The notes beneath the pieces are model-generated. The model worked only from the letters and a program-made list of their open reading frames with translations, was not told where the DNA came from and did no database searches. Shown in pieces: positions 38,647 through 63,454 of a stretch of DNA of 64,000 bases. Source of the stretch: Pseudomonadota bacterium (GTDB taxonomy: Bacteria; Pseudomonadota; Gammaproteobacteria; UBA9214); NCBI GenBank assembly GCA_039714975.1, contig JBDLIH010000005.1, forward strand, positions 12,857 to 76,856, written 5' to 3'. How positions within the stretch are numbered: position 1 is the stretch's first letter; each line of letters starts with the position of its first letter. The translations under genes were made by a program, and so were the position numbers.

Positions 38647-39933
38647 CTAGGGTACCTTGCTGTTAATCGTTATTTGAATTTCTTCTTTCGTCTGCGTGGC
38701 TACAGGTGAAACGGTACCTTGCAGGTCACCGCTCTGTGGCATCGCGCCGCCTGACTTTGAAACCCGGGCGCCGACGGTGACCTGATCAAACTTTGACAGC
38801 ACCATTTGCGGCGTCATTGCCATTGAGTCATTCAGTGTCACGGTAACGGGCAGGTCTTTTACCTGCTTGCGAACGATGGCCAGCGGCATGCGTGGCCCTT
38901 GCGCTGCGCGGGCAAAGATAAACACGGTGTCTTCAGCAGCGGCCGCTGCAGCAAGGTCCGGGTCCAGGGCGACGTGCACGCTCAGTGTTGCGCTACTGGC
39001 ACTGTCCACGGCTGCGGTGGTGGCTGACTCCGCCATTACTGTGGCGGGGGCAGTTTCTGTGTCAATACCGAGTTGACCCTGAAGCCTGTTGATCTGTTGA
39101 GCGATCACGGCGGCATCTTCACTGCCGGCCGGCAGCTTCGCGGCTGCCTGCTGCCAGTACTCAAGTGCCTCTGTATACGCACCCGACTGATTCTTCCAAT
39201 GCCCGGCGAGCCACAGGCCCTTGACGTTGCCCGGGTCGAGTTCCAGCGCCCGTATCAGCAGTGCACCGGAATCATCAGTGAAGGTGCCGCCGCTGGCCAT
39301 GACCATGGCATCGGCATAATCGGTCAGCAGGGCGGCATTCTCACCACCCAGGCGCAGCACGTTTTCATAGGCGGTCACGGCTTCGTTGTAGCGTTTCATG
39401 ATGCTGTAGCTGCGGGCCAGCATCACCCAGCCTTTCAGGTCGTCCGGTTGTTGCTGCAGGCGTGCAGCAAGCTTGGCCACCATTTCCTCTATCGAGGCTG
39501 CCTGCTGTGACTGTGCTGCTTGTGGCTGTGCTGCTTGTGACGGTGAAGATCGTGCCTGCTGCAACCGGTCAATTAGCTCCGCAGAGCCCATGAGTTGATA
39601 AAACAGTACCGCACACAGGGGGATGGCGGGAATTAACAGCAGCGTAAGCCAGCGGCCATTGCGTTCGGGTGTTATCGTCCGCTCGCTTTCGGTGGAGCCA
39701 AGATCATAGAGCAGCTCTCGCTCAATATCCTGGCGAGCCGCATCATACTGGGTCTTGTCAAGTTTGCCGGCAGTCAGGTCGGCCTCCAGTTCAGCAAGCT
39801 GTTCCTTGATGACCGTTGTGTTGAGATCGTCCCGGGTAACGACGGACACTGTGCGCTTGCGCATCAGCGGTGGCAATACAAACAGTAGTGCCACCATCAC
39901 CATGACGGTGGCGAGACTCCAGAAGACGGTCAT
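38647..39933 (-). CDS. ccmI: Cytochrome c maturation protein CcmI (TPR)
   Basis: N-terminal TM segments and TPR-like repeats (...YSIMKRYNEAVTAYENVLRL...). Last gene of the ccm operon, with an ATGA overlap with ccmH. Confidence 0.8.
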   Translation of the reverse strand: MTVFWSLATVMVMVALLFVLPPLMRKRTVSVVTRDDLNTTVIKEQLAELEADLTAGKLDKTQYDAARQDIERELLYDLGSTESERTITPERNGRWLTLLLIPAIPLCAVLFYQLMGSAELIDRLQQARSSPSQAAQPQAAQSQQAASIEEMVAKLAARLQQQPDDLKGWVMLARSYSIMKRYNEAVTAYENVLRLGGENAALLTDYADAMVMASGGTFTDDSGALLIRALELDPGNVKGLWLAGHWKNQSGAYTEALEYWQQAAAKLPAGSEDAAVIAQQINRLQGQLGIDTETAPATVMAESATTAAVDSASSATLSVHVALDPDLAAAAAAEDTVFIFARAAQGPRMPLAIVRKQVKDLPVTVTLNDSMAMTPQMVLSKFDQVTVGARVSKSGGAMPQSGDLQGTVSPVATQTKEEIQITINSKVP

Positions 39934-40457
39934 TGGTCTTTGTCCTGGCTGGTTGTTGTATTGCCGAGGATGGTATTCAGTCGTTCACGTTCCTCGGCCG
40001 AAATTTCGGCAGCCGGCACTTTTTGCTGTCTGCGTATACTGCGCAGCAACAACAGGCCGGCAATGAGCAACAGCACGAAAGGGCCAAACCAGATCAGGTA
40101 AGTGGACGGTTTTATCGGCGGATTATAGAGCACGAAGTCACCGTAGCGGGCGACAAGAAATTCGACAATCTCCTGGTCATTCTTGCCAGCCTGAACCATG
40201 TCATAGACTTCGGCGCGCAGGTCATGGGCCAGTTCGGCATCAGAGTCCACCAGTGACTGATTCTGGCACACAAGGCAACGAAGTTCTTCAATAAGGTCCT
40301 TGAAGTGCTGTTCTTCAGCCTTGCTGTCAAACTTGAAGGACTCCAGAGTGACGCCGGCCTGTGCCAGGCTGGCGCCTAGCAGCAGGCATAGCGTCAGAAC
40401 AGCAACCAGTGTTTTCAGGATGCCCTGAGTAATTATTTTATCGTCATCCCGGCGCAT
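39930..40457 (-). CDS. ccmH: Cytochrome c heme lyase subunit CcmH
   Basis: LRCLVCQNQSLVDSD (CXXC) and a C-terminal TM. Start set to ATG 40457, giving the signal peptide MRRDDDKIITQGILKTLVAVLTLCLLLGASLAQA. This ATG lies inside the palindromic repeat. The track start at 40535 adds 26 repeat-encoded residues. Confidence 0.8.
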   Translation of the reverse strand: MRRDDDKIITQGILKTLVAVLTLCLLLGASLAQAGVTLESFKFDSKAEEQHFKDLIEELRCLVCQNQSLVDSDAELAHDLRAEVYDMVQAGKNDQEIVEFLVARYGDFVLYNPPIKPSTYLIWFGPFVLLLIAGLLLLRSIRRQQKVPAAEISAEERERLNTILGNTTTSQDKDQ

Positions 40458-40509
40458 GCCGGGATCCAGGGTTTTCAATGCACTGGATGCCGGCATGCGC
40501 CGGCATGAT
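40443..40509. repeat. GC-rich double-hairpin palindromic intergenic repeat (copy B)
   Basis: gtcatcccggcgcatgccgggatcc...ggatgccggcatgcgccggcatgat. Same architecture as 14682-14755. Lies at the ccmG/ccmH junction. Confidence 0.85.
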
Positions 40510-40531
40510 GAATTAATCAGCGTTTCACTTT

Positions 40532-41071
40532 TCATGGGGTGGATTGCAGCTCTGCGATTAGTGGCAATATTTCATTGTTCAGGGCGTCGACTGTAAGCGG
40601 GCCAATATGCTTGTGGCGGATGATCCCCTGTTTATCCATGATGAAGGTCTCCGGTGCGCCGTAAACACCCCAGTCAATGCCGGTGCGGCCATCGGCATCG
40701 AAGGCATTTGCTGCGTAGGGGTCACCGAGTTGCAGCAGCCACTGTTGTGCCTTGGGACGTTCATCCTTGTAATTCAGGCCATAGATATCGACCTTGCCGG
40801 TCTTTGCCAGCAACAATAACACTTCGTGTTCTGCGCGACAGGAGACGCACCAGGTCGCCCAGATATTCAGAATGGAGACTTTGCCCTTGAGGTCGGTGTC
40901 GCTAATGGTGGCAGCGGGGTCCTGTAAACGCGGTAACACAAATGCCGGCATCGGTTTGCCGACCAGCGGGGACGGCACCCGCTTGGGATCGAGACTCAGT
41001 CCCCGGTAAAGAAAGGCAACCAGAATAAAAAAGATTGCCAGTGGTACCAGGTAGCGCAGGTAGCGTGTCAT
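40532..41071 (-). CDS. ccmG: Thiol:disulfide interchange protein DsbE/CcmG
   Basis: Thioredoxin-fold WATWCVSCRAEH and an N-terminal membrane anchor. Confidence 0.9.
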   Translation of the reverse strand: MTRYLRYLVPLAIFFILVAFLYRGLSLDPKRVPSPLVGKPMPAFVLPRLQDPAATISDTDLKGKVSILNIWATWCVSCRAEHEVLLLLAKTGKVDIYGLNYKDERPKAQQWLLQLGDPYAANAFDADGRTGIDWGVYGAPETFIMDKQGIIRHKHIGPLTVDALNNEILPLIAELQSTP

Positions 41072-43077
41072 CAGACGCGGCCCTCCGTTGCCAGCCGTTT
41101 GGAGGCGACCGGTTCCGCGACGGTCTTGCGCAGGGCCGCCATACGATAGCGCCGGTCGGTGGCAGCGAGCAGGCCGCCCAGACCCATGAGGATGCAGCCG
41201 AGCCAGATCCAGCGTACAAAGGGTTTGTAATACAGGCGCAGACTCCAGTCACCGTTGCCCAGTGTTTCTCCCAGCGAGACATAGATGTCGCGGGTGAAAC
41301 CGGGGTCGATACCGGCTTCCGTCATTGGTTTGGTCTGTACCAGGTAGGTGCGTTTTTCAGGATTCAGCACGGCGACTTCCTGACCACTGCTGTTGAATAC
41401 CCGAATCGTGCCCCGGTCGGCGCGGTAGTTGGGGCCCTGTACGGCCTCGGCGCCATCGAAGCGGAAGGTGTGTCCTGCCAGTTCGACCGTCTGTCCGGGT
41501 GACATGCGGATGTCCTGTTCCACATCAAACTGGGTGACAAAGGTGACCCCGATAATAAAGACGGCGATGCCGAAGTGCGCAATGATCATGCCGTAGTAGC
41601 TGCCACTGCCGCGTGCGCCGAAATCCCGCAGTAGGCCGGCCAGTCCCTTGCGGTATTTGAAACGCTGCCGCAGGCTGAGCACCAGTGACGAGACCACCCA
41701 CAGTGACAGCATCACGGCGAGACCGATCCAGATATTGCCTTCATGGAATAGCGGTAATGCCAGCAGGATACCGCCGCCAACACTCACCAGCAGTGCAAGA
41801 CGCAGTTGCCGGGCGAGGGCGCCGGGGTCCTGCTTTTTCCAGCGGGCCAGGGGGCCGATTCCCATGAGCATGACCAGAAACGGCGTAAAGATGACAAACA
41901 TGGTGGTGAACCAGGGGAACCCGACCGAGATCTTTCCCCAGCCCATGGCGTCGTAAATCAGCGGTGCCAGTGTCCCCAGCAGAATAAAGGCGGTGATCAC
42001 TACCAGCAGTACGTTATTCCCCAGCAACAGGGTCTCGCGGCAGAACAGGTCAAAACGTCCGCCGCTGGTGACTTCAGGCGCCCGCCAGGCGTACAACAGC
42101 AGCGAACCGCCAATGACAATGCACAGAAAGATCAGGATGAACAGTCCGCGTGCCGGGTCGGCGGCAAAGGAGTGCACCGAGGTGAGTACGCCGGAGCGCA
42201 CCAGGAAGGTGCCCAGCAGGCTCAAGGAGAAGGCCGTCAGCGCCAGCAGCACCGTCCAGCGTTTGAAGGCGCCGCGTTTTTCGGTCACCGCCAGTGAATG
42301 GATCAGGGCCGTGGCCACCAGCCAGGGCATGAACGAGGCATTCTCGACCGGGTCCCAGAACCACCAGCCGCCCCAGCCCAGTTCATAGTAGGCCCACCAG
42401 CTGCCCAGGCCGATGCCAAGGGTCAGAAACACCCAGGCGATCAGGGTCCAGGGCCTGGACCAGCGCGCCCAGGCCGCATCCAGTTTGCCGCCAATCAGCG
42501 CCGCGATGGCAAAACTGAAGGCCACGGACAGGCCGACGTAGCCCATGTAGAGCATGGGGGGGTGTATCGCCAGACCAAAGTCCTGCAGCAGCGGGTTCAG
42601 GTCGCCGCCTTCCAGCGGCACCGGGAAGATGCGTTCAAACGGGTTGGAGGTAAACAGCAGGAATGATATGAAGCCGATACTGACCATGCCCATCACCGAC
42701 AGCACCCGCGCCAGCACCTCGGCCGGCAGCTTGCGACTGAACAGCGAGACGGCCACGGTCCAGGTGCCCAGGGTCAGGGCCCACAGCAGCAGTGATCCCT
42801 CGTGGGCGCCCCAGACGGCGGAGATCTTGTAGATGTCCGGCAGCTGGGAGTTGCCATTTTGGGCGACATAGAGCACGGAAAAGTCATTGGTCAGGAAGGC
42901 ATTGACAAGGCAACCAAAGGAAATCATCAGAAAGGTGAACTGTCCCAAAGCCGCCGGGCGTGCCAGCGCGACCCAGCCGGGTGTGTTGTTGAGGCTGCCG
43001 ATCATGGGAACGGTCGCCAGCACCAGCGACATGCACAGCGCCAGGATCAGGGCAAATTGACCAAGTTCCGGGATCAT
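41071..43077 (-). CDS. ccmF: Cytochrome c heme lyase subunit CcmF
   Basis: 668-aa polytopic protein with WWD motif WGGWWFWDPVENASFMPW. Confidence 0.95.
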   Translation of the reverse strand: MIPELGQFALILALCMSLVLATVPMIGSLNNTPGWVALARPAALGQFTFLMISFGCLVNAFLTNDFSVLYVAQNGNSQLPDIYKISAVWGAHEGSLLLWALTLGTWTVAVSLFSRKLPAEVLARVLSVMGMVSIGFISFLLFTSNPFERIFPVPLEGGDLNPLLQDFGLAIHPPMLYMGYVGLSVAFSFAIAALIGGKLDAAWARWSRPWTLIAWVFLTLGIGLGSWWAYYELGWGGWWFWDPVENASFMPWLVATALIHSLAVTEKRGAFKRWTVLLALTAFSLSLLGTFLVRSGVLTSVHSFAADPARGLFILIFLCIVIGGSLLLYAWRAPEVTSGGRFDLFCRETLLLGNNVLLVVITAFILLGTLAPLIYDAMGWGKISVGFPWFTTMFVIFTPFLVMLMGIGPLARWKKQDPGALARQLRLALLVSVGGGILLALPLFHEGNIWIGLAVMLSLWVVSSLVLSLRQRFKYRKGLAGLLRDFGARGSGSYYGMIIAHFGIAVFIIGVTFVTQFDVEQDIRMSPGQTVELAGHTFRFDGAEAVQGPNYRADRGTIRVFNSSGQEVAVLNPEKRTYLVQTKPMTEAGIDPGFTRDIYVSLGETLGNGDWSLRLYYKPFVRWIWLGCILMGLGGLLAATDRRYRMAALRKTVAEPVASKRLATEGRV

Positions 43078-43541
43078 GGATCGGTTCCGTTGGTGTTTGT
43101 GTCAGCGGTACCTGCCTCATGGGTGGCTTTCAGGGCATCGGCCACTTCCGGTGGCATGTAGTTTTCGTCATGCTTGGCCAGCACTTCGCTGGCGACGAAC
43201 ATCCGGTCCTTGCCAAGCTCTCCCAGCGCCACGATACCCTGACCCTCGCGGAACAGATCCGGCAGGATACCGGTGTACCGGATGGTGGTCGTTTCGGCGT
43301 TGTCGGTGATGTCAAAGTGTACGGTCAGTCCGTCTTCCTGGCGTTTCACGCTGCCGGTGGTGACCAGTCCGCCGACGCGGATGGGATGATCGACCGGTGC
43401 CTCACCGGCGACGATGTCGGACGGTGTATAGAAGAACATCAGGTTTTCGTTGAAGGCCTTGAGCGCAAAGCCGGCCGCGATAGCGATGCCTGCGACCATG
43501 AGCACTATCAGGATCATGCGTTTCTTGCGTTTGGGTGTCAT
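43074..43541 (-). CDS. ccmE: Heme chaperone CcmE
   Basis: LAKHDENYMPPEV (heme-binding His). Start moved to ATG 43541 (MTPKRKKRM...), which overlaps the ccmD stop (ATGA). Confidence 0.9.
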   Translation of the reverse strand: MTPKRKKRMILIVLMVAGIAIAAGFALKAFNENLMFFYTPSDIVAGEAPVDHPIRVGGLVTTGSVKRQEDGLTVHFDITDNAETTTIRYTGILPDLFREGQGIVALGELGKDRMFVASEVLAKHDENYMPPEVADALKATHEAGTADTNTNGTDP

Positions 43542-43711
43542 GTGGTGTTTCTCCGTGCCCGTCTTGCTGCACGGGCAATGTCGCCCAGCAGCTTCTTGCG
43601 CTGCCGCAGCGGCAGGATCACATTGGCCAGCAGGACGATCAGGGCCAGACCGTAGGATGTCCACACGTAGAACGCGTAACCACCCATGTGGAAGAATTCA
43701 TTCAGATTCAT
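43538..43711 (-). CDS. ccmD: Heme exporter protein CcmD (57 aa; not in the ORF track)
   Basis: My own translation is MNLNEFFHMGGYAFYVWTSYGLALIVLLANVILPLRQRKKLLGDIARAARRARRNTT*. The NEFFxMGGYAFxVW core matches CcmD. There are ATGA overlaps with ccmC (43708-43711) and ccmE (43538-43541). Confidence 0.85.
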   Translation of the reverse strand: MNLNEFFHMGGYAFYVWTSYGLALIVLLANVILPLRQRKKLLGDIARAARRARRNTT

Positions 43712-44448
43712 TTTGTCTCCGCAAGTTCCCTGACCCAGCCGGTATTACGCTCGCGCTCCAGCACCTCGCAGCGTGCACGCATCAGCACCACGAAAGCGTA
43801 GTAGAACTTGAAGGCAAACGCCATCAGCAGCAGGGGTATCAGCATACTGAGATGGATAGAGGGTTTGTCGAACTTGGTAACGGTCGGGCCCTGGTGCAGG
43901 GTATTCCACCATTCGACCGAATAGTGAATGATGGGGATATTCACGACGCCGACCAGAGCAAGGATAGCCACGGCACGCGCTGCAGTGCGCTTGTCGTCGA
44001 TTGCATTGTACAGCGCGATCACACCCAGGTAGAGAAACAGCAGGATCAGTTCGGACGTCAGGCGTGCATCCCAGACCCACCAGGTGCCCCACATCGGCTT
44101 GCCCCAGATCGAACCGGTAACCAGCGCCAGAAACGTAAACGAGGCACCGACGCCCGCACTGCTGATGGCCATCACCTCGGCCAGCTTGATATGCCAGATC
44201 AGGCCGATGGCCCCGGCAGCGGCCATTACCACATAGATGAACATCGACATCCAGGCGGCCGGCACATGAATGAACATGATGCGGTAACTATCACCCTGCT
44301 GGTAATCCGGCGGCGCCTTGTACAGGCCGTAGTACAGGCCGGCCAGGAACAGCAGAACGCAGCCCGTCGCGAGCCACGGGATAAGGCGCCCGGAAATACT
44401 GTAGAAGTATTTTGGTGACGCCATCTTGTGAAAGAAGTTATTGAACAT
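43708..44448 (-). CDS. ccmC: Heme exporter protein CcmC
   Basis: WWD motif WGKPMWGTWWVWDARLTS. Confidence 0.95.
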   Translation of the reverse strand: MFNNFFHKMASPKYFYSISGRLIPWLATGCVLLFLAGLYYGLYKAPPDYQQGDSYRIMFIHVPAAWMSMFIYVVMAAAGAIGLIWHIKLAEVMAISSAGVGASFTFLALVTGSIWGKPMWGTWWVWDARLTSELILLFLYLGVIALYNAIDDKRTAARAVAILALVGVVNIPIIHYSVEWWNTLHQGPTVTKFDKPSIHLSMLIPLLLMAFAFKFYYAFVVLMRARCEVLERERNTGWVRELAETK

Positions 44449-44449
44449 A

Positions 44450-45133
44450 TCAACTCAAACTTATACGCAGGGCCGCAGCGGTTGCCAGTGGCGACAGGCT
44501 CAGGGACAACACCAGTAACGCGCTGATCAGCGATAAATGGGCAGTAACCGGAAGGCCTGCAGCAGCCGTATCCACTGCATTGGCCGCAAATATCAACAAC
44601 GGAATGTATAATGGTAACACGAGCAGGGACAGTATCATCCCCCCCTTGCGCAGTCCCACCGTGAGTGCCACGCCCACGGCACCGATCAGGCTCAGCACCG
44701 GCGTGCCCAGCGCCAGGGTAACCAGCAGGATCATAATGGCATCGCCGGGCAGCCCCAGCAGCACGCCCAGCAGCGGTGAAATCACCAGCAAGGGCAGGCC
44801 GGTGATCAGCCAGTGGGCCAGTACCTTGGCAAGCACCAGCACCGATACCGGGTGCGAACTCAGCAGGAACTGTTCCAGTGTGCCGTCCTCGAAATCGGAG
44901 CGGAAGATGCCTTCCAGCGACAGCAGGGCGGCGAGCAGCGCTGCCACCCAGATTACACCCGGGCCCACTGCCTGCAGCAGTTTCGGGTCGGCGCCGATGC
45001 CAAGCGGGAACAGGCTGGTGACCAGCACGAAGAACAGCAGCGGGTTGATCATTTCCGCCCGGTGCCGGATTGCCAGCGTCAGGTCACGCTTCAGCAGCAG
45101 GGTAAAGGCACGGAGCAGGGAATCGGAGGTCAT
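44450..45133 (-). CDS. ccmB: Heme exporter permease CcmB
   Basis: 227-aa six-TM protein between ccmA and ccmC. Confidence 0.9.
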   Translation of the reverse strand: MTSDSLLRAFTLLLKRDLTLAIRHRAEMINPLLFFVLVTSLFPLGIGADPKLLQAVGPGVIWVAALLAALLSLEGIFRSDFEDGTLEQFLLSSHPVSVLVLAKVLAHWLITGLPLLVISPLLGVLLGLPGDAIMILLVTLALGTPVLSLIGAVGVALTVGLRKGGMILSLLVLPLYIPLLIFAANAVDTAAAGLPVTAHLSLISALLVLSLSLSPLATAAALRISLS

Positions 45134-45774
45134 GCGGCCAGTTCGGACAGGTTGATGCGCTGGATAGTGGTGCTGGCAAGGTTGACGGCGTGGTGTGAAG
45201 TCACCGCCAGCATACCGCCGCGGGACGTGTGCTGGTCCAGCAGTTCCTCAATGACCTGGATGCCATGCACATCGAGTGAGGTAAACGGCTCGTCCAGAAT
45301 CCACAGGACGGTGTCGGTGACCAGCAGGCGCGCCAGCGCCAGGCGCCGCTGCTGGCCGGCTGACAGGTTGCGCGTCAGCACATCCTCAAACCCGTACAGG
45401 TCAACCTTCTCCAGGGCCTCCTCAAGCGTGGTGTCATTGGGTTTGCCCAGCGCCCGGGCCATGGCGAGGTTCTCCAATGGCGTCAGGTCGAGCTTGATAC
45501 CGTCCCGGTGGCCCACGTAGGCCGTATGTTCATGATAGTCCGCACCCAGCCGGTTGATCTCTTCACCGCACCAGTTGATACGGCCGGCGTCCGGCAGCCG
45601 GATGCCGCACAGGATGCGCAACAGCGAAGTCTTGCCGCTGCCGTTACGGCCTTCCAGTACCAGTGCCTGTCCACGTTCGAGCCTGAAGCTCAAGTCACTG
45701 AACAGGGTGCGGTCATCGCGAATGCATTCCAGTCCATGGGCTTCGAGTCTGGTATTGTTCTTGCTCTGGGTCAC
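45130..45774 (-). CDS. ccmA: Heme exporter ATP-binding protein CcmA
   Basis: Walker A GRNGSGKTS, signature LSAGQQRRLALARL, Walker B LWILDEP. Confidence 0.9.
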   Translation of the reverse strand: MTQSKNNTRLEAHGLECIRDDRTLFSDLSFRLERGQALVLEGRNGSGKTSLLRILCGIRLPDAGRINWCGEEINRLGADYHEHTAYVGHRDGIKLDLTPLENLAMARALGKPNDTTLEEALEKVDLYGFEDVLTRNLSAGQQRRLALARLLVTDTVLWILDEPFTSLDVHGIQVIEELLDQHTSRGGMLAVTSHHAVNLASTTIQRINLSELAA

Positions 45775-45884
45775 AGTCTTTAATTTGTATTAACGACAGG
45801 CAGTCGCACGGATTAGTGGATTAAAAATCGAATCATACCTGTTTCAGGCTGTTTAGCCCAAGACTGTACACAGGTAATATTGTT

Positions 45885-45914
45885 AAAAAAAAAAGGGCGG
45901 AATAATCCGCCCTT
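45885..45914 (-). terminator. Rho-independent terminator after the small Cys-peptide gene
   Basis: The minus strand reads AAGGGCGG-attatt-CCGCCCTT followed by T10. Confidence 0.8.
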
Positions 45915-45965
45915 GGGGATGGAACTGGAAAGTGGGGGGTTCCAGTCCCTGGAAACCGTGCTGTA

Positions 45966-46178
45966 CTAGTTAGCGATGCAAACCTTGTTTTTATTACCCC
46001 CAGGGTAAGTCGTTCGCGCATTGCAAGCCGTCTTGTCGAGGATTTCATCGCAGGTTACCGTGCTTTCACAATCCGAATCGACTGCGTGGCTGGTGCTAAC
46101 CAGCATCAGACTGCCAATGGCCAGCAACAGGCCGCCAACAAGTAACAGGGTTCCTGCAATGCCGTTTCTCATGACCAT
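45966..46178 (-). CDS. Small secreted Cys-rich peptide (70-aa precursor)
   Basis: Signal/anchor GTLLLVGGLLLAIGSLMLVSTSHA. The mature ~37 aa has 4 Cys. It has its own sigma-54 promoter and intrinsic terminator. The C-terminus is homologous to the C-terminus of the cytochrome at 49265-51907. Confidence 0.7.
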   Translation of the reverse strand: MVMRNGIAGTLLLVGGLLLAIGSLMLVSTSHAVDSDCESTVTCDEILDKTACNARTTYPGGNKNKVCIAN

Positions 46179-46217
46179 CTTTTCTGAATAGTGTTTTCCA
46201 TATAATTAGTGAACAAG

Positions 46218-46232
46218 GCAAGCTTCATGCCA
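46218..46232 (-). promoter_or_regulatory. Sigma-54 (-24/-12) promoter of the small Cys-peptide gene
   Basis: The minus strand reads CTGGCATGAAGCTTGCC (TGGCAT-N5-TTGC). The -12 element lies 40 nt upstream of ATG 46178. Confidence 0.75.
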
Positions 46233-46308
46233 GGCACGGGTAAATCAGGAACTTTCTGGCAGAATAGGACGTTAGCTTACACATTCCTCCTGGTCCAGAT
46301 TAGAAGCA

Positions 46309-46356
46309 TGACAAATTTGTCAGGTATGTCACATACAGTCTGTCAGACAAATGACA
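46309..46356. promoter_or_regulatory. TGTCA/TGACA array (candidate enhancer/UAS), site A
   Basis: Five pentamers in 48 bp, including the perfect 14-bp palindrome TGACAAATTTGTCA (46309-46322) and TGTCAGACAAATGACA (46341-46356). Lies 75-125 bp upstream of the -24 box. Confidence 0.6.
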
Positions 46357-46578: not shown

Positions 46579-47373
46579 ATGTTTCTGCGACTACCGAAAT
46601 TCATCTGTGCATTGTTCCTCGCCTGCATGGCCGGCTGTGCGCCCGACTCGGGCCAGCAACCGCAACTCATGGTGTTTGCCGCGGCAAGTCTGCGCGATGT
46701 CATGAGTGAAGTGGGTACGCGTTTTGAGCAGGAACACGGCATCCACGTCAACTACAACTTCGCCGGCAGTAATGTGCTTGCCCAGCAACTCCTTGCTGCC
46801 CCCAAGGCCGACCTCTTTCTCAGTGCCAACAAAGCCTGGATGCGGCGTCTGGGACAGGCTGAGCGGATCGTGCCCGGCTCGCACCAGGCGGTTCTGGGCA
46901 ACCGGCTCGTGGTCATCGCCAATCATGCCAGTATCCTGAAGGCTAATCCCCGGGAACTGTTCTGCACGCCCGGCTTTGAATACCTTTCCATTGGCAATCC
47001 GGAGGCAGTGCCCGCTGGAATCTATGCCAGGGAGTGGCTGGAAAAACTTCCCTGCGACGAGGGCAGCGCCTGGGACGCGGTTGCCGGCCGCATTGCGCCG
47101 GCGCCTGACGTGCGCGCGGCCCTGGGTCTGGTGGAAGCCGATCGGGATATTCCGGGAATTGTCTATGCCACCGATGCGGCCATGTCGGACAAGGTGCGCG
47201 TCATTCAGGAGGTGAGCGGTAACGATGCGCCCGTCATCCTCTATTACGCGGCCCTGGTGGACAACGAATCCAGCCATGAGCAGGCCAGGCTGTTTCTTCG
47301 TTTCCTGACCGGCGAGCAGGCCGCCGAAGTGTTCCGTCGTTACGGTTTTACCGGTCCGCAGAACCATGAATGA
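46579..47373 (+). CDS. modA: Molybdate ABC transporter substrate-binding lipoprotein ModA
   Basis: Lipobox [15 protein letters not shown], and the overall ModA pattern. Followed by modB and modC. Confidence 0.85.
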
Positions 47374-48046
47374 GGCCTCGCTGACGGCGCTGCTGTTGAC
47401 GCTGCAATATGCCTCGCTGGCCACGGCCATCGTCTTTGTACCCGGCATGCTCATTGCCTATGTGCTGGCACGTTTTTCCTTTCCCGGCAAGGTCTTCGTC
47501 AGTGCCCTGACGAGCCTGCCCCTGGTCCTGCCGCCCACTGCGGTGGGTTATCTGTTGCTGCAGATGCTCGCCACTGACGGGATTCTCGGCAGGGAGATTC
47601 TGGGTGTCGACCTGGACATTCTGTTGACCGGAAAAGCGGTCGTCGTGGCATGCGCGGTGATGTCGGTGCCGCTGATTATCCGGACTGCCCGGATCGCCTT
47701 CGAGGGGGTGAATGACCGCTACGAGGCTATGGCGCGCACTCTGGGTTATGGACCTGTAGAAACCTTTCTGCGTTTCACCTTTCCACTGGCGGCACGCGGC
47801 CTGCTGGCGGCGATGATCCTGGGTTTCACCCGCGCCATGGGCGAGTTTGGTGTGACCGTCACGATTGCCGGCAACATCCCCGGCCGCACCCAGACCCTGG
47901 CCTCTGCCATCTTCAGTGCCCAGCAGGTCGGCAACGATCACGAGGCCAATTTCCTGGTTCTCGTTGCCCTGGCGACCGGCTTTTGTGCGATCCTGGCGGC
48001 CGAGTTCCTTTCGCTACGGGGCGCGCGTAGACGCAAATCCCCTTGA
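47366..48046 (+). CDS. modB: Molybdate ABC transporter permease ModB
   Basis: Five/six-TM permease with the conserved loop ...[24 protein letters not shown]. Confidence 0.85.
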
Positions 48047-49146
48047 GCAACGGCCATGAAATTCGGGCTAAGCTGAATCTGCCCCTCGATCGATTCACCC
48101 TGTCAGTGGATCTCAAGCTGCGCCGGCATGTGACGGGTATCTTTGGGGCTTCGGGTTCCGGAAAGACCAGCCTGCTGGAGACTGTTGCCGGACTCCGCCG
48201 CAGTGCGCAGGGCATGCTCCGTCTGGGTGACCAGCTGTGGCAGGACTCTTACCGGGGCGCCTTCATGCCGCCTGAACGCCGCAATATCGGTTATGTGCCC
48301 CAGGATGCCCTGCTGTTTCCACACCGGAATGTGCGTGCGAACCTGCTTATTGGCCAGCGCCGGGCGCGGTGCCAGGGTCAGGATGTCGAGGCCCTGCAGC
48401 AGGAAGTGATCGCCTTGCTGGAACTGGATGCCCTGCTGGAGCGCAACGTCGACACTCTCTCGGGAGGGGAGCGCCAGCGGGTGGCCTTGGGTCGGGCTCT
48501 GTGTTCCGGACCGCGGCTGCTGCTGATGGATGAGCCACTGGCTTCCCTCGACCTGGGTATGCGGCGCAAGTTGTTGCCCTTTCTGCGCACGATCCGCCAA
48601 TCCTTCGACATCCCCATGCTATTGGTCTCACACGACCCAATTGAGGTTCAGGCCCTGTGTGATGAGTTGGTGGTCCTGCAGGATGGTCAGGTCATTGCCC
48701 AGGGTGAACCCCGGGTTACCCTGATGCAGGCGTCCCGTGATGCGGCGGAATTTGCGCATTTGGTCGAAAATGTACTGCCTTGCCGCTTTGAGCGTCATGA
48801 GGGCGAGGCAACTCTGGTCCGTATCGGGCTTGAGGGCGATGGCCCGCTGCTGACACTGCCCCGGGTGAGCGGGGCGGGTGCAAGCGCGCAGATGATTGCC
48901 GTGCGCAGCCGGGACATTATCGTATCCAATACCCGGCCATACGGTCTCTCGGCCCGCAATGTCCTGCCCGGTGTGGTGCGGCGGGTGGCAGCGGCCGGCA
49001 AGAAATACCTGGTCTTTTGCGCAGTAGACCGGAGCGCGGTGGAACTGGCCGTGGAAGTCACGCTGGCCTCGCTGCAGGAACTGGATCTCAAGCCGGAAAC
49101 CCCGGTGTTTCTTATTATCAAGGCAACTACCCTGGAACTCTGCTGA
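48043..49146 (+). CDS. modC: Molybdate ABC transporter ATP-binding protein ModC
   Basis: Walker [37 protein letters not shown], and a C-terminal Mop/TOBE-like ~130 aa. Confidence 0.85.
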
Positions 49147-49264: not shown

Positions 49265-51907
49265 CTAGATCGGGCTACAGACCTTGTTCTTGTTGCTATA
49301 GCTGCAGGTGGCCTGCGCGTTGCAGGAGGTCTTGTCGCCGTTGTACTGCGAGCAGTCGACCTGCTCGCAGACAGGATCTCCGCCGCAGTTGTCGATGTCA
49401 TCACAGTCGACCAGTCCGTTGCAGTCGTTGTCAACACCGTCATCACAGGTCAGCTCCGTCGGCCCTTCCGGTGTACAGACGTTCGACACACACTGGCCGT
49501 TCTTTGGGCTGCCCTGCCAGTCACAGACAGGATCATTATTGCAGCTACCCTTGTCTTCGTGTATGGAGCAACCCTGGCCTGTTAGGCAGTCGGTATCCGA
49601 CGCATCGGTAAAACCATCACAGTCGTTGTCGACACCGTCAGTGCAGAAAGTTTCCTGTGTTTCCTGGCCGGGGGTCGGATTGCAGACCGGCGGGGTACCC
49701 CATTCGACCGAGTACATGACCACCGGCGGCACCATCTTGTAGTCGCCGTTGATCATCTGCACGCCGGTGATTGGCGCGCCGGTACTCTGGACAACGTCGG
49801 CATTGAGCCAGGCATCCATCATGGCGTCACCCTGATTGCCGAGGAACGCGTTCTCCCCGGTGTTGGCCATCTGCAGGAACTGTATGTATTCCCAGCTGGT
49901 GCCCTGATAGAGCAGGTCGATGGTGGCATGGACAGCACCGATTGGCGGGTTGAGCAATACATCGTCCGCGTGCTCGTAGGTATCGCCTGTCCTGGTATAA
50001 CGGGTTTCCGGCACCGGCAGTGCGTTGCGCTTCTTGGCTTCGGTGTAGCTCATCTGATACGGCGGAATGCGGTTGTCCTTGGATACGTAGTTGTTGAGCG
50101 CAAAATGGAAGGTCTCATGGTAGTCGCCCGAGCAATCAGGATACTGGACGGGATCGTCGAGCAGGAACTGACTGACAGTACAGTCTGGCAGACCCGTTAA
50201 GCGGTCATAGCTGAGCGCGAAGTCCGGGTCTTGCACGGCCTGCACGATAACAGCCCATTCCCTGGTGATGGCGTAGTGCGCTTCGTAGATCTCGGTGTTG
50301 GTGCCATCCAGCTTGAGGATGGTTTCCACGGCATCGGCCTGACCGTCACCGTCGAGGTCCATGTCGGTCTGCAGGCTGCCGTACGCGCCATCTTCTCCAA
50401 CCAGGGCGCCTTCACTGTCATACCACTTGATGTTCAGCCACATGCGGCGTCCTTCAGGGTAGCCGGTGATCAGCTTGTGGCCGGTCAGGTTGGTGACCGT
50501 GACGGTGTTGCCCGTTACCGACAGGGCACCCGCTTCACGCAGATGCTTGGTGGCGCGTTCCTGGCCGAGGTCCATTGCCAGCAGCTGGGTGCTGTTCAGA
50601 CCACCGCCTACACGCAGCGTACCGACGTCAGGCCGATCCTGGTACTGTGCCATGCTGGCGAACCAGTAGTTGCCGCCGGTGTGGTCATGGCGCGGCAGGT
50701 CGGACCGTGTCTTGACGTTCTTGTTGCAACCTTTGCCGGTAGTCGGGCGCATATGGCAGCTCTGGCAGCTGAATTTACGCGGTGTACCGTCAGCATAGTC
50801 ACCTTCGATTATGCTTGAGTCATTTGGGTCACCCGGATCTGCCGCGATGGCGGCCTGGTAGGTGACTTCAAGAGAACCGCCCGCCACCTGCAGGTCGAGC
50901 GGGAGATCTTCATTGAATCGGCCAACGCGCATGTTTGAAAGCGGGCTGGACTTGTATTCGCTGAAGGTACGTTCGACGATGCCGTAGGCATACGGCGGGT
51001 TGTTGAACGCGGCCTTGTTGACGATGGCGCCGCCCAGGCAGCCGCCGCCGACTGCGGACAGGTCGCCGCCCTCGGGAAACGGCAGGATGGTGTTGCCATT
51101 GTCATCGACACAGTCGAAATCACGACTTGAAATAACTGTTGCGTCTGTAGGCGCCAGACTCTGGGTGCCATGGTTGCCGGCGAGGTCACCCACCGCTGAG
51201 TTGGACACGTCGTGGCAGCTTCCGCAGAAATCCGGGTCGCGGTGCCATGCTGACTGTCTGAACTGGTGGCGTGCTTCGGCATCATCCTCAGCGTATGGTC
51301 CCAGTTTTACATTGACGTCAGGCCACAGCGAGAGCATGCCGCTGCCGTAGAAGCCTTCGCCAGCCGAGCCGGTCTTCGTACATTTGTCAGGGACGTTTGG
51401 ATCGGGCTCACAGTTGGCGATAAACGGCGAGTTCATCATGCCCTGCAGTATGGGGTCGGAATTGTTCGGGTTGGTCGCGGCATGGCAGGTATCGCAGTCG
51501 ATGCCGTTATCATCGCTCGCTGCCAGGCCGGAACCGTCGGTCGGTGTGGAGCGGCCATCATACCAACCCTTGGCGCTGTGGCAGCGGATGCAGAGATCGC
51601 CCGCGCCGTCGAAGTCCTGCTCGGCAATGGCCAGCGTGGCCCAGAACACCGGGTCACGTCCGGCGTTACCCATGGCGGCGCCGCGCCAGCCCGTGGCAGG
51701 TTCGGCGCCCGGGTCGTCGAGGTTGTATCCGGCGTGGCAGTTGTCGCACTTGTCCGGTGACTCGAAATTCCCGACTTCACCCGGCTGGGTGCCGGGCATC
51801 TTGATTTCGTTAGGCACAACACCAGCTGCTTGCGCAGTGATTGCGAATATTAGTGTCAGGCAGGCGAGTAGTGCACCTATAGGCAGGTCTTTGGTGAGGC
51901 TTGTCAT
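49265..51907 (-). CDS. Secreted five-heme c-type cytochrome with C-terminal Cys/Asp-rich (MopE-like) repeats
   Basis: Signal peptide ...IFAITAQAAG. Five CXXCH motifs (CDNCH, CIRCH, CDTCH, CGSCH, CQSCH). The C-terminal ~125 aa contains CTDGVDNDCDGFTD and CDDGVDNDCNGLVD repeats. Confidence 0.85.
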   Translation of the reverse strand: MTSLTKDLPIGALLACLTLIFAITAQAAGVVPNEIKMPGTQPGEVGNFESPDKCDNCHAGYNLDDPGAEPATGWRGAAMGNAGRDPVFWATLAIAEQDFDGAGDLCIRCHSAKGWYDGRSTPTDGSGLAASDDNGIDCDTCHAATNPNNSDPILQGMMNSPFIANCEPDPNVPDKCTKTGSAGEGFYGSGMLSLWPDVNVKLGPYAEDDAEARHQFRQSAWHRDPDFCGSCHDVSNSAVGDLAGNHGTQSLAPTDATVISSRDFDCVDDNGNTILPFPEGGDLSAVGGGCLGGAIVNKAAFNNPPYAYGIVERTFSEYKSSPLSNMRVGRFNEDLPLDLQVAGGSLEVTYQAAIAADPGDPNDSSIIEGDYADGTPRKFSCQSCHMRPTTGKGCNKNVKTRSDLPRHDHTGGNYWFASMAQYQDRPDVGTLRVGGGLNSTQLLAMDLGQERATKHLREAGALSVTGNTVTVTNLTGHKLITGYPEGRRMWLNIKWYDSEGALVGEDGAYGSLQTDMDLDGDGQADAVETILKLDGTNTEIYEAHYAITREWAVIVQAVQDPDFALSYDRLTGLPDCTVSQFLLDDPVQYPDCSGDYHETFHFALNNYVSKDNRIPPYQMSYTEAKKRNALPVPETRYTRTGDTYEHADDVLLNPPIGAVHATIDLLYQGTSWEYIQFLQMANTGENAFLGNQGDAMMDAWLNADVVQSTGAPITGVQMINGDYKMVPPVVMYSVEWGTPPVCNPTPGQETQETFCTDGVDNDCDGFTDASDTDCLTGQGCSIHEDKGSCNNDPVCDWQGSPKNGQCVSNVCTPEGPTELTCDDGVDNDCNGLVDCDDIDNCGGDPVCEQVDCSQYNGDKTSCNAQATCSYSNKNKVCSPI

Positions 51908-51958: not shown

Positions 51959-51973
51959 GCAAGAACGGTGCCA
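51959..51973 (-). promoter_or_regulatory. Sigma-54 (-24/-12) promoter of the five-heme cytochrome gene
   Basis: The minus strand reads CTGGCACCGTTCTTGCTT, a full match to TGGCAC-N5-TTGC. The -12 element lies 52 nt upstream of ATG 51907. Confidence 0.85.
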
Positions 51974-52149: not shown

Positions 52150-53007
52150 TCAGATTATGTCATGGCGTAACGCAAGACCAACGGCTTCTGTGCGGCTATG
52201 TACCCCCAGCTTCAGGAACATGTTCTTGAAATGGTTGCGTACGGTCTCGGCACTGATAAACAATTGTTTGGCAATTTGCGCGGTCTTCACTCCCTCTGAC
52301 GCCATGTTCAGCAATTGTTTTTCCCGGGGCGTCAGGCGACTGAAACATGTGTCGGGATGTGTATCGGTATTCTTCGTATTGGCCATCCGTTGCAGCAGTT
52401 GCCGGGTACTAATGTGCCGCAGGCTGAAAAAGACGCCAACGTTATCGGTATTCTGCTGTAATTCAGCCGGTGTGTAGTAAGCGCCCACATTGACCATAAT
52501 GGAATTACCGTTCTCGTGATCCACCATCATGTCGATATTCCCGGCCGCCGGCCTGCCGCTAGCCCTTTGGGAGAAGGGGCAATCGTGTCCACAAATGGCG
52601 TTTCCATGCAGGCCGACGCTGCACAGCACCCCGGCGCACGCGGTATTCAGGATATCTTCCCGGGTATGTCCCAGCAGATTTTCGCAACTGCTGTTCCAGA
52701 AGCGGATTCTTTTCTCACCATCAATGCCAAATACAGCATCTGTGCTCTGTTCAAAGACCTGGTACATGCCATTCATCATCTGGTTTCCCTTTAATGCATT
52801 ATCTGGAACCCATCCTTGTTGTTTATCAAACAGCCTTGTCCCGGTAACGATATATTCGGATGCACCAAACGTGCCAGAAATCTGTTTCGTATAAACAGAT
52901 GAATCTAAAGGTGTAAAATCACGGCTGCTCAGATCGTTCTGATCGAACATGACATAAATGACATATGTAAATGCCGATATGACGTTATTGGCATATTTTG
53001 GTGACAT
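52150..53007 (-). CDS. PAS-domain LuxR/FixJ-type (HTH) transcriptional regulator
   Basis: PAS core ...STDAVFGIDGEKRIRFWNSSCENLLGH... with a four-Cys cluster CAGVLCSVGLHGNAICGHDCP. The C-terminal HTH is LTPREKQLLNMASEGVKTAQIAKQLFISAETVRNHFKNMF. There is no receiver domain and the start is uncertain. Confidence 0.8.
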   Translation of the reverse strand: MSPKYANNVISAFTYVIYVMFDQNDLSSRDFTPLDSSVYTKQISGTFGASEYIVTGTRLFDKQQGWVPDNALKGNQMMNGMYQVFEQSTDAVFGIDGEKRIRFWNSSCENLLGHTREDILNTACAGVLCSVGLHGNAICGHDCPFSQRASGRPAAGNIDMMVDHENGNSIMVNVGAYYTPAELQQNTDNVGVFFSLRHISTRQLLQRMANTKNTDTHPDTCFSRLTPREKQLLNMASEGVKTAQIAKQLFISAETVRNHFKNMFLKLGVHSRTEAVGLALRHDII

Positions 53008-53237
53008 TAACTGACCAGGGAGGGAGGTTTTCCTCGTACGGTTTTGCCTGGTGCACTTTATCGAATATGACCCATGTGACGAGATTTATGACTCAAACGG
53101 GTCATTCATTCCGTATGGAGTAACCGCCAGAATCATTACCCATGACCAGTTGCCTGTGACGCCAGTGGTGTCGCAGGGTACGTGGTCCGGATAACGATAG
53201 TTCAACTAATTTTGGTCCGGTGACAGGAGGACAGGGG

Positions 53238-56030: not shown

Positions 56031-56132
56031 GCGGAGCACGTGAATTGAAGTGGAAAAATACAATGGTTAAGCAAATAAACAAGTTAACAGCGTTACCGGG
56101 TAACCGGGTAACCGAGACTGGAGGTACCTGCA

Positions 56133-57149
56133 ATGGCTAAAGGTGGAGGTGGTGGTGGCAATCAGATTGCGATGCTCATCAATCTTGATAAGTGTCTTGG
56201 CTGCCATACGTGTACGGTTGCTTGCAAGAACCTGTGGACCAACAAGGGTGGCCGCGAGTACATGTACTGGAACAACGTTGAATCGCGTCCCGGCGAGGGT
56301 TACCCGAGGAACTGGGAAGGTATGGGCGGTGGCTTCCAGGGCGGTCAACCTGACCCGGGTATCTTCCCGGCAAACAGCGACTACGGCCTGGGCGACCAGG
56401 GTCAGATCGTCGATTTCGATTATCCGACACGCCTGGGTCATGATCCGGACAACGTGACCCCGAATCCCGGTATCGTCGATGCCGACCCGCAACCGGAGTG
56501 GCTGTCCAACTGGGACGAGGAGCAGGGTGACGGTACGTTCCCGAACAGCTACTACTTCTATCTGCCGCGTATGTGCAATCATTGCGATCGGCCCGCGTGT
56601 CTGGAGTCCTGTCCGCGCAAGGCCATCTACAAGCGCGAGGAGGACGGCATCGTGCTGGTGGACCAGGATCGCTGCCGCGGCTACCGCCAGTGCGTGCGCA
56701 CCTGCCCCTACAAGAAAGTCTTCTTCAACAGCGAGACGCTGAAATCGGAGAAGTGCATCTTCTGCTACCCGCGTATCGAAGCTGGCGAGGCCACCGCCTG
56801 TGCGGTGCAATGCCCCGGCCGCGTCCGCCATGTGGGTTTCGTGAGCGACGCTTCCTCGGATGTCTACAGGCTGGCCAAGGACCTGAAGGTGGCCCTGCCG
56901 CTGCATCCGGAGTACGAGACCGGACCCAACGTCTACTATATACCGCCCTTCTCGGGGCCTTCACAGGTCGATTCGAACGGAAATCTGATAAACGTGGAAC
57001 GGATACCGGTGGCCTACCTGCGCTTCCTGTTTGGCGATGAAGTCGATGCGGCCATCGCCACCCTGCGAGACGCCAGGGCTAACGGCGACCCGGACGGCAT
57101 CCTTGCCATCCTGAATTCCAATAATCGTTACGACATACCGCAACCGTAG
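56133..57149 (+). CDS. Molybdoenzyme beta subunit (NarH/EbdB-like, four Fe-S clusters)
   Basis: CLGCHTCTVACK, CNHCDRPACLESCP, CRGYRQCVRTCPY and CIFCYPRIEAGEATACAVQCP. Confidence 0.9.
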   Translation: MAKGGGGGGNQIAMLINLDKCLGCHTCTVACKNLWTNKGGREYMYWNNVESRPGEGYPRNWEGMGGGFQGGQPDPGIFPANSDYGLGDQGQIVDFDYPTRLGHDPDNVTPNPGIVDADPQPEWLSNWDEEQGDGTFPNSYYFYLPRMCNHCDRPACLESCPRKAIYKREEDGIVLVDQDRCRGYRQCVRTCPYKKVFFNSETLKSEKCIFCYPRIEAGEATACAVQCPGRVRHVGFVSDASSDVYRLAKDLKVALPLHPEYETGPNVYYIPPFSGPSQVDSNGNLINVERIPVAYLRFLFGDEVDAAIATLRDARANGDPDGILAILNSNNRYDIPQP

Positions 57150-57159
57150 GGGGCTAGTC

Positions 57160-58392: not shown

Positions 58393-58402
58393 TTGCCGGG
58401 CA

Positions 58403-59092
58403 ATGACTACAGAAGCAAAGGAGAACAACATGTCGGGACAAGCTGCACTGGAAATGACGAAGCTCACGGACGAGGATCTTGTCGATGTTAACCGCAGTCG
58501 GCTGTACAAGCTGCTTGCCCTGGGGTTCGGGTTTCCGTGCAAGGATTTGCATGATGCACAGGCCGAACTCCGGGAAATCGCGGCAGCGCTGTATCCCGAT
58601 CTGGAACTGAACCGGGAAGATGTGAACCTGCTGGCCCCGGAAATCGAGTCGTTGTACATCAATGTGCTCGATGGGCATAACCAGAAAAAGGCCTGCAGGC
58701 CCTACGAAACTGCCTGGCGAGAGGGCGAACGGTCCATGCAGCAGTGGGAAGTGAAGAAGTTATACCAGATATTCGGTCTGGAGCTGAACAAGGAAACCAA
58801 CGAGTTGCCGGACCATATCGTGAACGAACTGGAGTTCATGCATTTCCTCAGTCATCAGGCAGTGGAGGCCAGCAGGGGGCTGCTGGGTGATGGCGACAGC
58901 CGCAAGCAGTATGTGCATGCGCAGAAGGACTTTCTGGAGCGGCACCTCAGTCTGTGGGTGCCAAAATTCTGCAAGGCACTGCAGGAAAAGATTGACGAAC
59001 CGTTCTACATGAATCTCGCAGCCCTCACGGAACAGTTTGTCACGGATGACCTCGAGTGGGTGCAGGAGCAGTACGAGGCCGAGAACGGCTAG
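58403..59092 (+). CDS. TorD/NarJ/EbdD-family molybdoenzyme maturation chaperone
   Basis: RSRLYKLLALGFGFP and ELPDHIVNELEFMHFL. Its position is directly after the structural genes. Confidence 0.8.
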   Translation: MTTEAKENNMSGQAALEMTKLTDEDLVDVNRSRLYKLLALGFGFPCKDLHDAQAELREIAAALYPDLELNREDVNLLAPEIESLYINVLDGHNQKKACRPYETAWREGERSMQQWEVKKLYQIFGLELNKETNELPDHIVNELEFMHFLSHQAVEASRGLLGDGDSRKQYVHAQKDFLERHLSLWVPKFCKALQEKIDEPFYMNLAALTEQFVTDDLEWVQEQYEAENG

Positions 59093-59113
59093 CCGCGACT
59101 TCCATTTACTGCC

Positions 59114-60109: not shown

Positions 60110-60174
60110 AGCCCGGGCGGCACGATGACAACGGGTTCGAGCGTGAAGATAAAAAAGGCAGGAAACTGATTGGG

Positions 60175-63163: not shown

Positions 63164-63301
63164 TCGAATCACTTTCAGCAGCCTGCCGGTAGAGAGGTCC
63201 TGTCGCCGCAGAATTTGTCAGCGCCGTTACCGGCGCGAGTTGTCACTGTAATCATCCACTGAAACCCGTTTGCATAAGTGTACAAACTGTCTTCGTTCGA
63301 A

Positions 63302-63438: not shown

Positions 63439-63454
63439 TGGCATGGATTGTGCC
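63439..63454 (+). promoter_or_regulatory. Candidate sigma-54 (-24/-12) promoter of the downstream secreted-protein gene
   Basis: CTGGCATGGATTGTGCC. GG-N10-GC spacing is correct. The -12 reads GTGC rather than TTGC. Lies 110 nt upstream of ATG 63564. Confidence 0.5.

Follow-up and report, generated by a model that had tools for sequence, protein, structure and literature searches.

A micro-open reading frame behind a sigma-54 promoter, probably the remnant of a multihaem cytochrome gene, beside the ccm operon of an uncultured gammaproteobacterial lineage

Results

The micro-ORF unit and its related loci

The minus strand of a 64,000-nucleotide (nt) stretch of contig JBDLIH010000005.1 (the whole stretch is called the window, and positions are numbered within it) carries between 46356 and 45885 a predicted upstream activating sequence, a sigma-54 promoter, a short leader, a micro-open reading frame (micro-ORF), a stem-loop in the 3' untranslated region (UTR) and an intrinsic terminator (Table 1). 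The genes ccmABCDEFGHI follow downstream on the same strand, modABC lies upstream in divergent orientation, and beyond modABC stand the gene of an 880-residue multihaem cytochrome and the gene of a PAS-LuxR regulator. By comparative sequence analysis we were able to show the conservation of these features, the homology of micro-ORF tails to the cytochrome ends and selection at the codon level. We consider it probable that the unit is a target of a PAS/sigma-54 regulon in which an internally deleted cytochrome paralogue has survived as a micro-ORF, with only its N-terminal helix still under selection.

Eleven metagenomic relatives of the peptide, its own record excluded, were retrieved from a collection of 5.8 billion proteins, and further relatives from a profile search over 1.84 billion representatives. 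The loci compared (L001 to L003 and L005 to L018) number 17 and gave 11 distinct sequences. Every one of them was recovered by similarity of the N-terminal peptide, and lineages with a decayed N-terminus would be missed. Common to all are the -24/-12 element, the pentamer-rich enhancer, a Shine-Dalgarno sequence, an ATGAGA or ATGAAR start and the conserved N-terminus. A profile scan with the peptide over the GTDB species representatives yielded no carrier genome (the sole match was a spurious one in Sorangium), and the lineage is without a reference genome among these representatives; L014 comes from a metagenome-assembled genome labelled Gammaproteobacteria bacterium.

Promoter and upstream activating sequence

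Positions 46232 to 46218 of the minus strand read cTGGCATgaagcTTGCc, and the last base of TTGC (46218) is 40 nt from the A of the ATG at 46178, as in the original prediction, which had been made from the window alone. Within this element (TGGCATgaagcTTGCc) GG and GC are exactly 10 bp apart and part of a match to TGGCAC-N5-TTGCW. Exact matches to TGGCAY-N5-TTGC occur twice in the window, here and at 51973 to 51959 on the same strand, against about 0.43 expected by chance; at least two matches were obtained in 5 of 100 shuffles. In the 17 related loci TGGCATGAAGCTTGC is unchanged or carries a single spacer change amid diverged flanks, and its mean identity between sequence groups far exceeds that of the adjoining spacer and of the third codon positions of ccmA (Table 2). 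The Shine-Dalgarno sequence of the leader is weak in the window (AAAAGA) and reads GGAGG or GGAGAGA in relatives. A leader insertion of about 30 nt, forming the hairpin GCCGGTACCTGATTTGCCGGC, was observed in L001, L002, L005 and L013 and is absent from the window and from the group with short leaders.

Upstream of the promoter, five TGACA/TGTCA pentamers form the densest such cluster of the window, including the perfect dyad TGACAAATTTGTCA at 46322 to 46309, whose centre lies 84 bp upstream of the GG of the -24 element. Clusters of at least four pentamers per 60 bp are found at only three sites of the window, all located 75-190 bp ahead of sigma-54-like -24/-12 elements (those beginning at 46232 and 51973 on the minus and at 63439 on the plus strand). 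First-order Markov simulations produced any four-pentamer cluster in 2 of 300 runs and a five-pentamer cluster in none of 300, so that the five pentamers and the palindrome reported from the first reading are present beyond chance. Upstream of GG, the related loci retain a pair of TGRCA-N4-TGYCA dyads spaced by 22-23 bp, whose centres lie either at 83-84 and 105-106 bp or at 74 and 96-97 bp; since these arrangements differ by one helical turn, they fit a face-of-the-helix requirement. Between enhancer and promoter, a consensus site of integration host factor (IHF) with at most one mismatch was found in none of the loci. Judged by the invariance of the element between groups (0.99) and by the significance of the pentamer cluster, the micro-ORF promoter is a genuine, dedicated, enhancer-type sigma-54 promoter, as had been proposed for this small gene.

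The conserved start and N-terminus

The conserved start of the micro-ORF is the ATG at 46172 (MRNG..., 68 residues, stop codon TAG at 45968 to 45966) and not, as first assumed, the ATG at 46178 with a product of 70 residues. This follows from the relatives, which read ACG at the first position, from the Shine-Dalgarno sequence, which fits the second ATG, and from the record of the gene, which gives 68 residues. The N-terminus begins with a short basic segment, followed by 18-21 uncharged residues, a length sufficient for a membrane anchor, and by the motif S-x-S-H-A (consensus M-[RK]-x-G-I-x-x-x-LLL-[VI]-G-x-LL-x-x-I-G-S-L-M-L-x-S-x-S-[HY]-A); in some relatives V is found at position -1.

Read in frame, the first 30 codons have a ratio of non-synonymous to synonymous change per site (pN/pS) of 0.31-0.41; the two other frames give 0.69-0.75 and 1.30-1.55. 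The variants seen amount to 27/68 synonymous and 33/193 non-synonymous (Fisher p = 3e-4). These codons are under purifying selection, which bears out the earlier claim that the micro-ORF is not noise. Between positions 8 and 25, none of the 12 distinct sequences has a charged residue or a proline, and all replacements are hydrophobic or small. The coding identity of this part is close to that of the ccmA coding sequence (Table 2). Because its synonymous divergence (0.25-0.42) is also near that of ccmA (0.3-0.5), an additional RNA-level constraint on these codons is not needed and was rejected.

The tail and its relation to the cytochrome gene

The tail of the window's micro-ORF matches the 880-residue cytochrome (BLASTP E = 4e-8) and, in DNA and protein alignments alike, is collinear codon for codon with its last 38 codons, down to the identical stop position. 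The homology is limited to these 38 C-terminal residues and the 68-residue ORF contains no CxxCH motif; by these alignments, the micro-ORF is a fragment and not a member of the multihaem cytochrome family. In L014 to L016 the same promoter and signal-peptide family precedes a stretch that corresponds to residues 1-34 of the mature cytochrome (E = 4e-20 to the window cytochrome) and contains its first haem motif CDNCH (ADVVPPEIQLPGTQPNEVSNFESPDKCDNCHAVY); the ORF then stops. The tails of L017 and L018 are unrelated to either cytochrome end. A full-length cytochrome with this signal peptide was not found among the best 120 homologues, and the full-length ancestor is one that we infer.

The tail does not appear to be under selection, as judged by its pN/pS of 0.6-1.1 between lineages and by its nucleotide identity, which is about half that of the N-terminus (Table 2). 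Past residue 30 the relatives have 4, 4, 3, 3, 2, 2, 1 and 0 cysteines, and the lineages differ in which of these were lost; in L002 and L005 a 12-nt deletion removed the last one. Only 14-16 residues of tail are left in L003, L006 and L012, and in L010 and L011 the tail is interrupted by an element like the repetitive extragenic palindromes (REP). The secreted cysteine peptide, or regulated effector, of the original prediction did not withstand this comparison, given cysteines that vary from four to none and a nearly neutral tail that is deleted or replaced in relatives. The REP-like palindromes, which lie in or just past the micro-ORF, read GTAGCCCGGATG...CATCCGGGCTAC in L010 and L011 and GCAGGGTGCGC...GCGCACCCT in L018 (480-960), and indicate that insertions are tolerated past codon 30.

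Searches of the peptide against Pfam and NCBIfam gave nothing meaningful even at E = 10, and the models of the acidic double-disulfide repeat and of the MopE type (NF033662, PF11617) did not match it at this threshold either. The cytochrome and the gamma subunit of a neighbouring molybdoenzyme do match NF033662/PF11617-type models.

Terminator and RNA structure

The terminator consists of a 9-bp stem (45914 to 45893) followed by a run of ten T down to 45885, and shows compensatory changes from A-U to G-C in relatives, which confirms the self-contained unit with a textbook terminator that had been described. A recognisable intrinsic terminator is kept at most related loci; L018 has REP-like elements in its place. 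The stem-loop between stop codon and terminator is predicted from the alignment and from the single sequence, with some pairs changed on both sides; L014, L017 and L018, which are more distant, do not retain its sequence. The predicted fold of the transcript is more stable than those of shuffled sequences (z = -3.7). No Rfam family matched at gathering score over the whole window, and around the locus there was only sub-threshold noise at E up to 5. An attenuator that couples ribosome position to the hairpins was considered and rejected, since the spacing between stop codon and hairpin varies among the loci (from overlap to about 100 nt).

Between the terminator and ccmA, a sigma-70-like element (TTGGGC-N18-TATGAT) and a flanking block are conserved in the window and in most relatives with readable downstream sequence. 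Its -35 hexamer matches at only 3 of 6 positions and was missed by a simple promoter scan. It is probably the promoter of the ccm operon itself.

The candidate activator and further sigma-54-like promoters

The likely candidate for the protein that binds the enhancer is a protein of 468 residues with PAS, Sigma54_activat and HTH_8 domains. In L014 and L015 an orthologue (69% identical) is the divergent neighbour, 240 bp from the orthologous peptide promoter, and in L005 an orthologue (80% identical) lies 1.3 kb from it. Moreover, the same pentamers are present upstream of the activator gene itself, in two genomes. In the window this region (61644 to 61720) contains the direct repeats ATGTCAATC ATGTCAATC ATGCCAATT ATGTCAT together with TGACAG-N4-TGACAG, and similar repeats stand at the orthologous position of L005 (7690-7800), which suggests autoregulation. 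The PAS domain has a conserved stretch rich in cysteine and histidine (PCYKVSH...), suggestive of a metal or redox cofactor. In the loop that contacts sigma-54, the window protein has GAYTGS and the orthologues of L005 and L015 have GAFTGS, i.e., a conserved phenylalanine is replaced by tyrosine.

Two further promoters of the window are associated with pentamer clusters. The dyad TGACGCGACTGTCA of the promoter beginning at 63439 is centred 85 bp upstream of GG, which matches the 84 bp of the peptide promoter, and the region from 63216 to 63453 contains six TGACA/TGTCA pentamers. The gene behind it encodes a secreted protein (MFRTSFSRIAHKALALVACTGAILALAAGPVSAAH...) and extends past the end of the window; a listed minus-strand ORF at 63407 to 63928 is probably spurious. 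At the cytochrome promoter the dyads have the opposite polarity and lie at 139 and 97 bp. The enhancer geometry that the first reading had called the same for micro-ORF and cytochrome is therefore shared only loosely: both promoters have pentamer clusters, and the polarity and spacing of the dyads differ. Among the pentamers upstream of the cytochrome promoter is also a perfect palindrome, AATTGGCA-CCTCTC-TGCCAATT (52072 to 52093, minus strand), which may be bound by another regulator, for example the PAS-LuxR protein encoded next to it. A cytochrome homologue with 76% identity from an AT-rich organism has a sigma-70-like promoter instead; sigma-54 control of the whole cytochrome family is thereby ruled out and appears as specific to the lineage of the window.

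In four loci (L001, L003, L006 and L007) a multicopper oxidase gene is preceded by a divergent sigma-54-like promoter, TGGTATAGTTCTTGC, that has the enhancer in common with the micro-ORF. In L006 this promoter is found at 9740-9754 of the minus strand, and the multicopper oxidase of about 1,200 residues is followed by CusB/CusA-like efflux genes. The regulon of these four genomes may be related to metal or copper.

Genomic neighbourhood

The region beyond the PAS-LuxR gene contains the operon of a type II molybdoenzyme of the dimethyl sulfoxide (DMSO) reductase family, with alpha, beta, haem-b EB_dh gamma and NarJ-like delta subunits and MoaA. Among solved structures, the alpha subunit is closest to the perchlorate reductase PcrA (E about 1e-257), and the gamma subunit has a long N-terminal extension of MopE/acidic double-disulfide repeats. 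No chlorite dismutase is present among the annotated ORFs of the window, and the substrate may be perchlorate, chlorate, selenate or another compound. A DsbA-like gene lies between the molybdoenzyme/MoaA genes and the activator gene. Between moaA and this DsbA-like gene, near the sigma-54 activator, an ORF of 231 residues shows a weak match to the zinc-resistance sensor/chaperone ZraP (E = 6e-4), an arrangement that recalls ZraP/ZraSR. The left 38 kb of the window is occupied by housekeeping phosphate metabolism.

Table 1. Features of the micro-ORF unit and associated elements of the window
Feature	Position	Strand	Basis or remark
Upstream activating sequence (predicted), five TGACA/TGTCA pentamers	46309..46356	-	motif count, simulation, conservation in relatives
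Sigma-54 promoter, -24/-12 element TGGCATgaagcTTGC	46218..46232	-	exact consensus match and conservation in relatives
5' leader	46173..46217	-	about 35 nt of RNA if transcription starts, as predicted, about 11 nt past the -12 GC
Conserved N-terminal 30 codons MRNGIAGTLLLVGGLLLAIGSLMLVSTSHA, signal-peptide or signal-anchor helix	46083..46172	-	codon-level selection, hydrophobicity
Non-conserved tail of 38 codons and stop, VDSDCESTVTCDEILDKTACNARTTYPGGNKNKVCIAN	45966..46082	-	remnant of the disulfide module at the C-terminus of the multihaem cytochrome family
3' UTR stem-loop between stop codon and terminator	45921..45951	-	RNAalifold on 10 sequences, 9 pairs
Intrinsic terminator AAGGGCGGATTATTCCGCCCTT and run of T	45885..45914	-	sequence, compensatory changes
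Sigma-70-like element	45832..45861	-	conservation in relatives
ccmABCDEFGHI	38647..45774	-	
modABC	46579..49146	+	
Gene of the 880-residue multihaem cytochrome	49265..51907	-	
Sister sigma-54 promoter of the cytochrome gene	51959..51973	-	exact match, 52 nt before the gene start
PAS-LuxR regulator gene	52150..53007		
Molybdoenzyme operon	53220..60109	+	
ZraP-like ORF	60106..60801	+	
Candidate activator, PAS/AAA+ sigma-54-interaction/HTH_8 enhancer-binding protein, 468 residues	61757..63163	+	Pfam and NCBIfam matches
Third sigma-54-like promoter TGGCATggattGTGC	63439..63453	+	precedes the secreted-protein gene starting at 63564

Table 2. Mean nucleotide identity between sequence groups
Region	Identity
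Promoter (15 nt)	0.99
ccmA, codon positions 1 and 2	0.90
First 90 coding nt	0.85
ccmA, codon position 3	0.68
Terminator to ccmA	0.65
3' UTR and terminator	0.61
5' UTR	0.47
Enhancer block (motifs kept)	0.46
Enhancer-to-promoter spacer	0.44
Tail	0.42

Discussion

The micro-ORF unit can probably be understood as an eroded target of a PAS/sigma-54 regulon. The candidate activator would bind the phased TGRCA-N4-TGYCA sites about 75-125 bp upstream, contact the sigma-54 RNA polymerase at TGGCAT-N5-TTGC and open the promoter, and the output would be a monocistronic RNA, about 320 nt long, with the stem-loop and the intrinsic terminator at its 3' end. As to its origin, a paralogue of the cytochrome gene would have lost a body of about 800 codons by internal deletion, leaving promoter, ribosome-binding site, signal peptide, the last 38 codons and terminator. 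Two lineages keep opposite ends of one gene, so that the simplest history is a paralogue hollowed out by deletions at least twice independently. At present, selection continues to act on the promoter and on the N-terminal hydrophobic helix of 30 residues. Since the helix is selected and the tail apparently is not, the product is most likely a small membrane peptide, inserted in the inner membrane or cleaved there by signal peptidase, with the helix as its active part, and not a disulfide-bonded secreted effector.

Several observations weigh against this interpretation. The retrieval of loci through the N-terminal peptide inflates the apparent conservation of that part, and the N-terminus of L014 is just 57% identical, when even the signal of CcmH, an ordinary signal peptide, is 64% identical between the window and L005. 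The search for a full-length gene with this signal peptide among the best cytochrome homologues was negative, and rpoN was not identified among the window ORFs examined. Furthermore, the cytochrome promoter, with its dyads of opposite polarity, does not present the putative activator sites in the same way.

It is conceivable, at a clearly lower level of confidence, that the orphaned signal peptide has gained a function of its own, as a hydrophobic helix of about 30 residues induced by the PAS/sigma-54 activator. Such a helix would modulate a membrane complex or signal-peptide processing, provide a feedback signal of the regulon or act as a membrane-active peptide. If true, this would explain its survival past the cytochrome gene through several independent tail replacements. 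A rival view is that the ORF, demonstrably a deletion remnant, is a dying pseudogene fragment without present function, either with an enhancer that is kept for a divergent neighbour or with too little time to decay. Indeed, the activator gene lies opposite the enhancer in L014 and L015, as does TGGTATAGTTCTTGC with the multicopper oxidase gene in L001, L003, L006 and L007, and the way in which the loci were retrieved favours intact N-termini. However, the -24/-12 element directed toward the micro-ORF is invariant including its spacer, while neutral sites differ by 30-50%, purifying selection on the N-terminal codons is significant, and the same N-terminus is combined with at least five unrelated tails, which indicates that the tail has been exchanged repeatedly and the head retained. 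We therefore regard mere decay as unlikely.

An equally improbable explanation is that the RNA is the functional product, a sigma-54-dependent small regulatory or dual-function RNA whose 3' stem-loop, C-rich single strands and terminator act on mRNAs. Sigma-54-dependent small RNAs are an established class (GlmY, Qrr, CrcZ), and the short monocistronic transcript with its dedicated promoter and strong terminator, the additional stem-loop with compensatory changes, the C/U-rich loop and linkers and a fold more stable than shuffles would all suit a member of it. Like GlmY, Qrr, CrcZ and NrsZ, the unit gives a short terminator-bounded transcript with structured 3' hairpins from an enhancer-dependent promoter of its own. 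It differs from them in that its best-conserved stretch evolves as translated sequence, with low pN/pS in frame only, and in that the 3' structure is not conserved in the distant L014, L017 and L018, covariation being confined to closer relatives; nor did Rfam provide a match. Another use of the transcript, as a sigma-54-dependent leader from which read-through raises the capacity for haem attachment when the cytochrome is induced, appears very unlikely. To link cytochrome induction with Ccm capacity is biologically sensible, and ccmA follows on the same strand about 185-200 nt past the stop codon in the window and in all loci with readable downstream sequence except L017 and L018, where no ccmA is visible. 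However, the strong terminator is maintained by compensatory changes, the conserved sigma-70-like element stands between it and ccmA, and the position of the hairpin relative to the stop codon varies from overlap to about 100 nt.

The secreted, disulfide-bonded cysteine peptide, in which the 38 residues of the mature part would be active after cleavage, we likewise consider highly improbable. Its attraction lies in an N-terminus that resembles a signal peptide with an S-H-A site, in the four cysteines of the window tail, which resembles the module matching the NCBIfam acidic double-disulfide repeat in the cytochrome and the gamma subunit, and in the DsbA-like and DsbE genes nearby. Against it, the positions and numbers of the cysteines vary, with odd counts or none in some relatives, and the tail, with a pN/pS of about 0.6-1.1, is curtailed in three loci, replaced in L014, L017 and L018 and interrupted by repeats in two; the peptide itself matches neither the repeat model nor any Pfam or NCBIfam family.

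As an eroded regulon target, the micro-ORF may be compared with sigma-54 systems that have their own activator, such as ZraR/zraP, PspF/pspA, NifA/nifH and PcrR of the perchlorate-reduction islands. It is similar to these in the GG-N10-GC core within a match to TGGCAC-N5-TTGCW, in the repeated phased dyads 75-125 bp upstream and in an AAA+/HTH_8 activator encoded nearby, or divergently in relatives. As in the case of zraP and pspA, one target of the regulon encodes a small envelope protein, and the targets are envelope or redox proteins. The window activator, by contrast, is no response regulator but a one-component protein whose PAS domain has a motif rich in cysteine and histidine; the spacer lacks an IHF consensus, and a truncated remnant takes the place of an intact effector. 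The TGRCA-N4-TGYCA sites are not known to correspond to those of a characterised activator. Nothing relevant emerged from a literature search on small proteins under sigma-54 control with a link to cytochrome c maturation, or on the acidic double-disulfide repeat.

The cytochrome itself belongs to a family of more than 4,500 relatives. The micro-ORFs share with it the last 38 codons and the stop in the window and the first 34 mature residues with CDNCH in the orthologous L014 locus, and both genes stand behind sigma-54 promoters with TGACA-type pentamer clusters. The micro-ORF differs from the cytochrome gene by the absence of the haem-binding body of about 800 residues, by another signal peptide and by a disulfide module that is short of cysteines. 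In size, in the possession of one conserved hydrophobic helix with a poorly conserved remainder and in the tight transcriptional control by a stress or redox regulator, the product resembles MgrB, AcrZ, CydX, MgtS and the hydrophobic type I toxins, to which it has no sequence relationship. Neither a partner protein nor an antisense RNA for it was identified at the locus. To our knowledge, no small membrane protein of the MgrB type and no type I toxin has been described as arising from the signal peptide of a decayed gene.

Our work provides a sigma-54 promoter and enhancer that are validated by comparison of related loci, together with a candidate activator of the one-component PAS type and at least three promoters as targets. 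They belong to an uncultured lineage of gammaproteobacteria that has a molybdoenzyme island of the perchlorate-reductase-like kind. The kind of system, an enhancer-dependent promoter, is known; the unusual part is the eroded target. What could easily be annotated as a "Cys-rich secreted peptide" is corrected to the stump of an eroded cytochrome gene, which raises the question of why an enhancer-dependent promoter and a bare signal-peptide ORF have been preserved after the loss of their cargo. If the helix is functional, the micro-ORF would illustrate how a signal peptide can give rise to a micro-protein.

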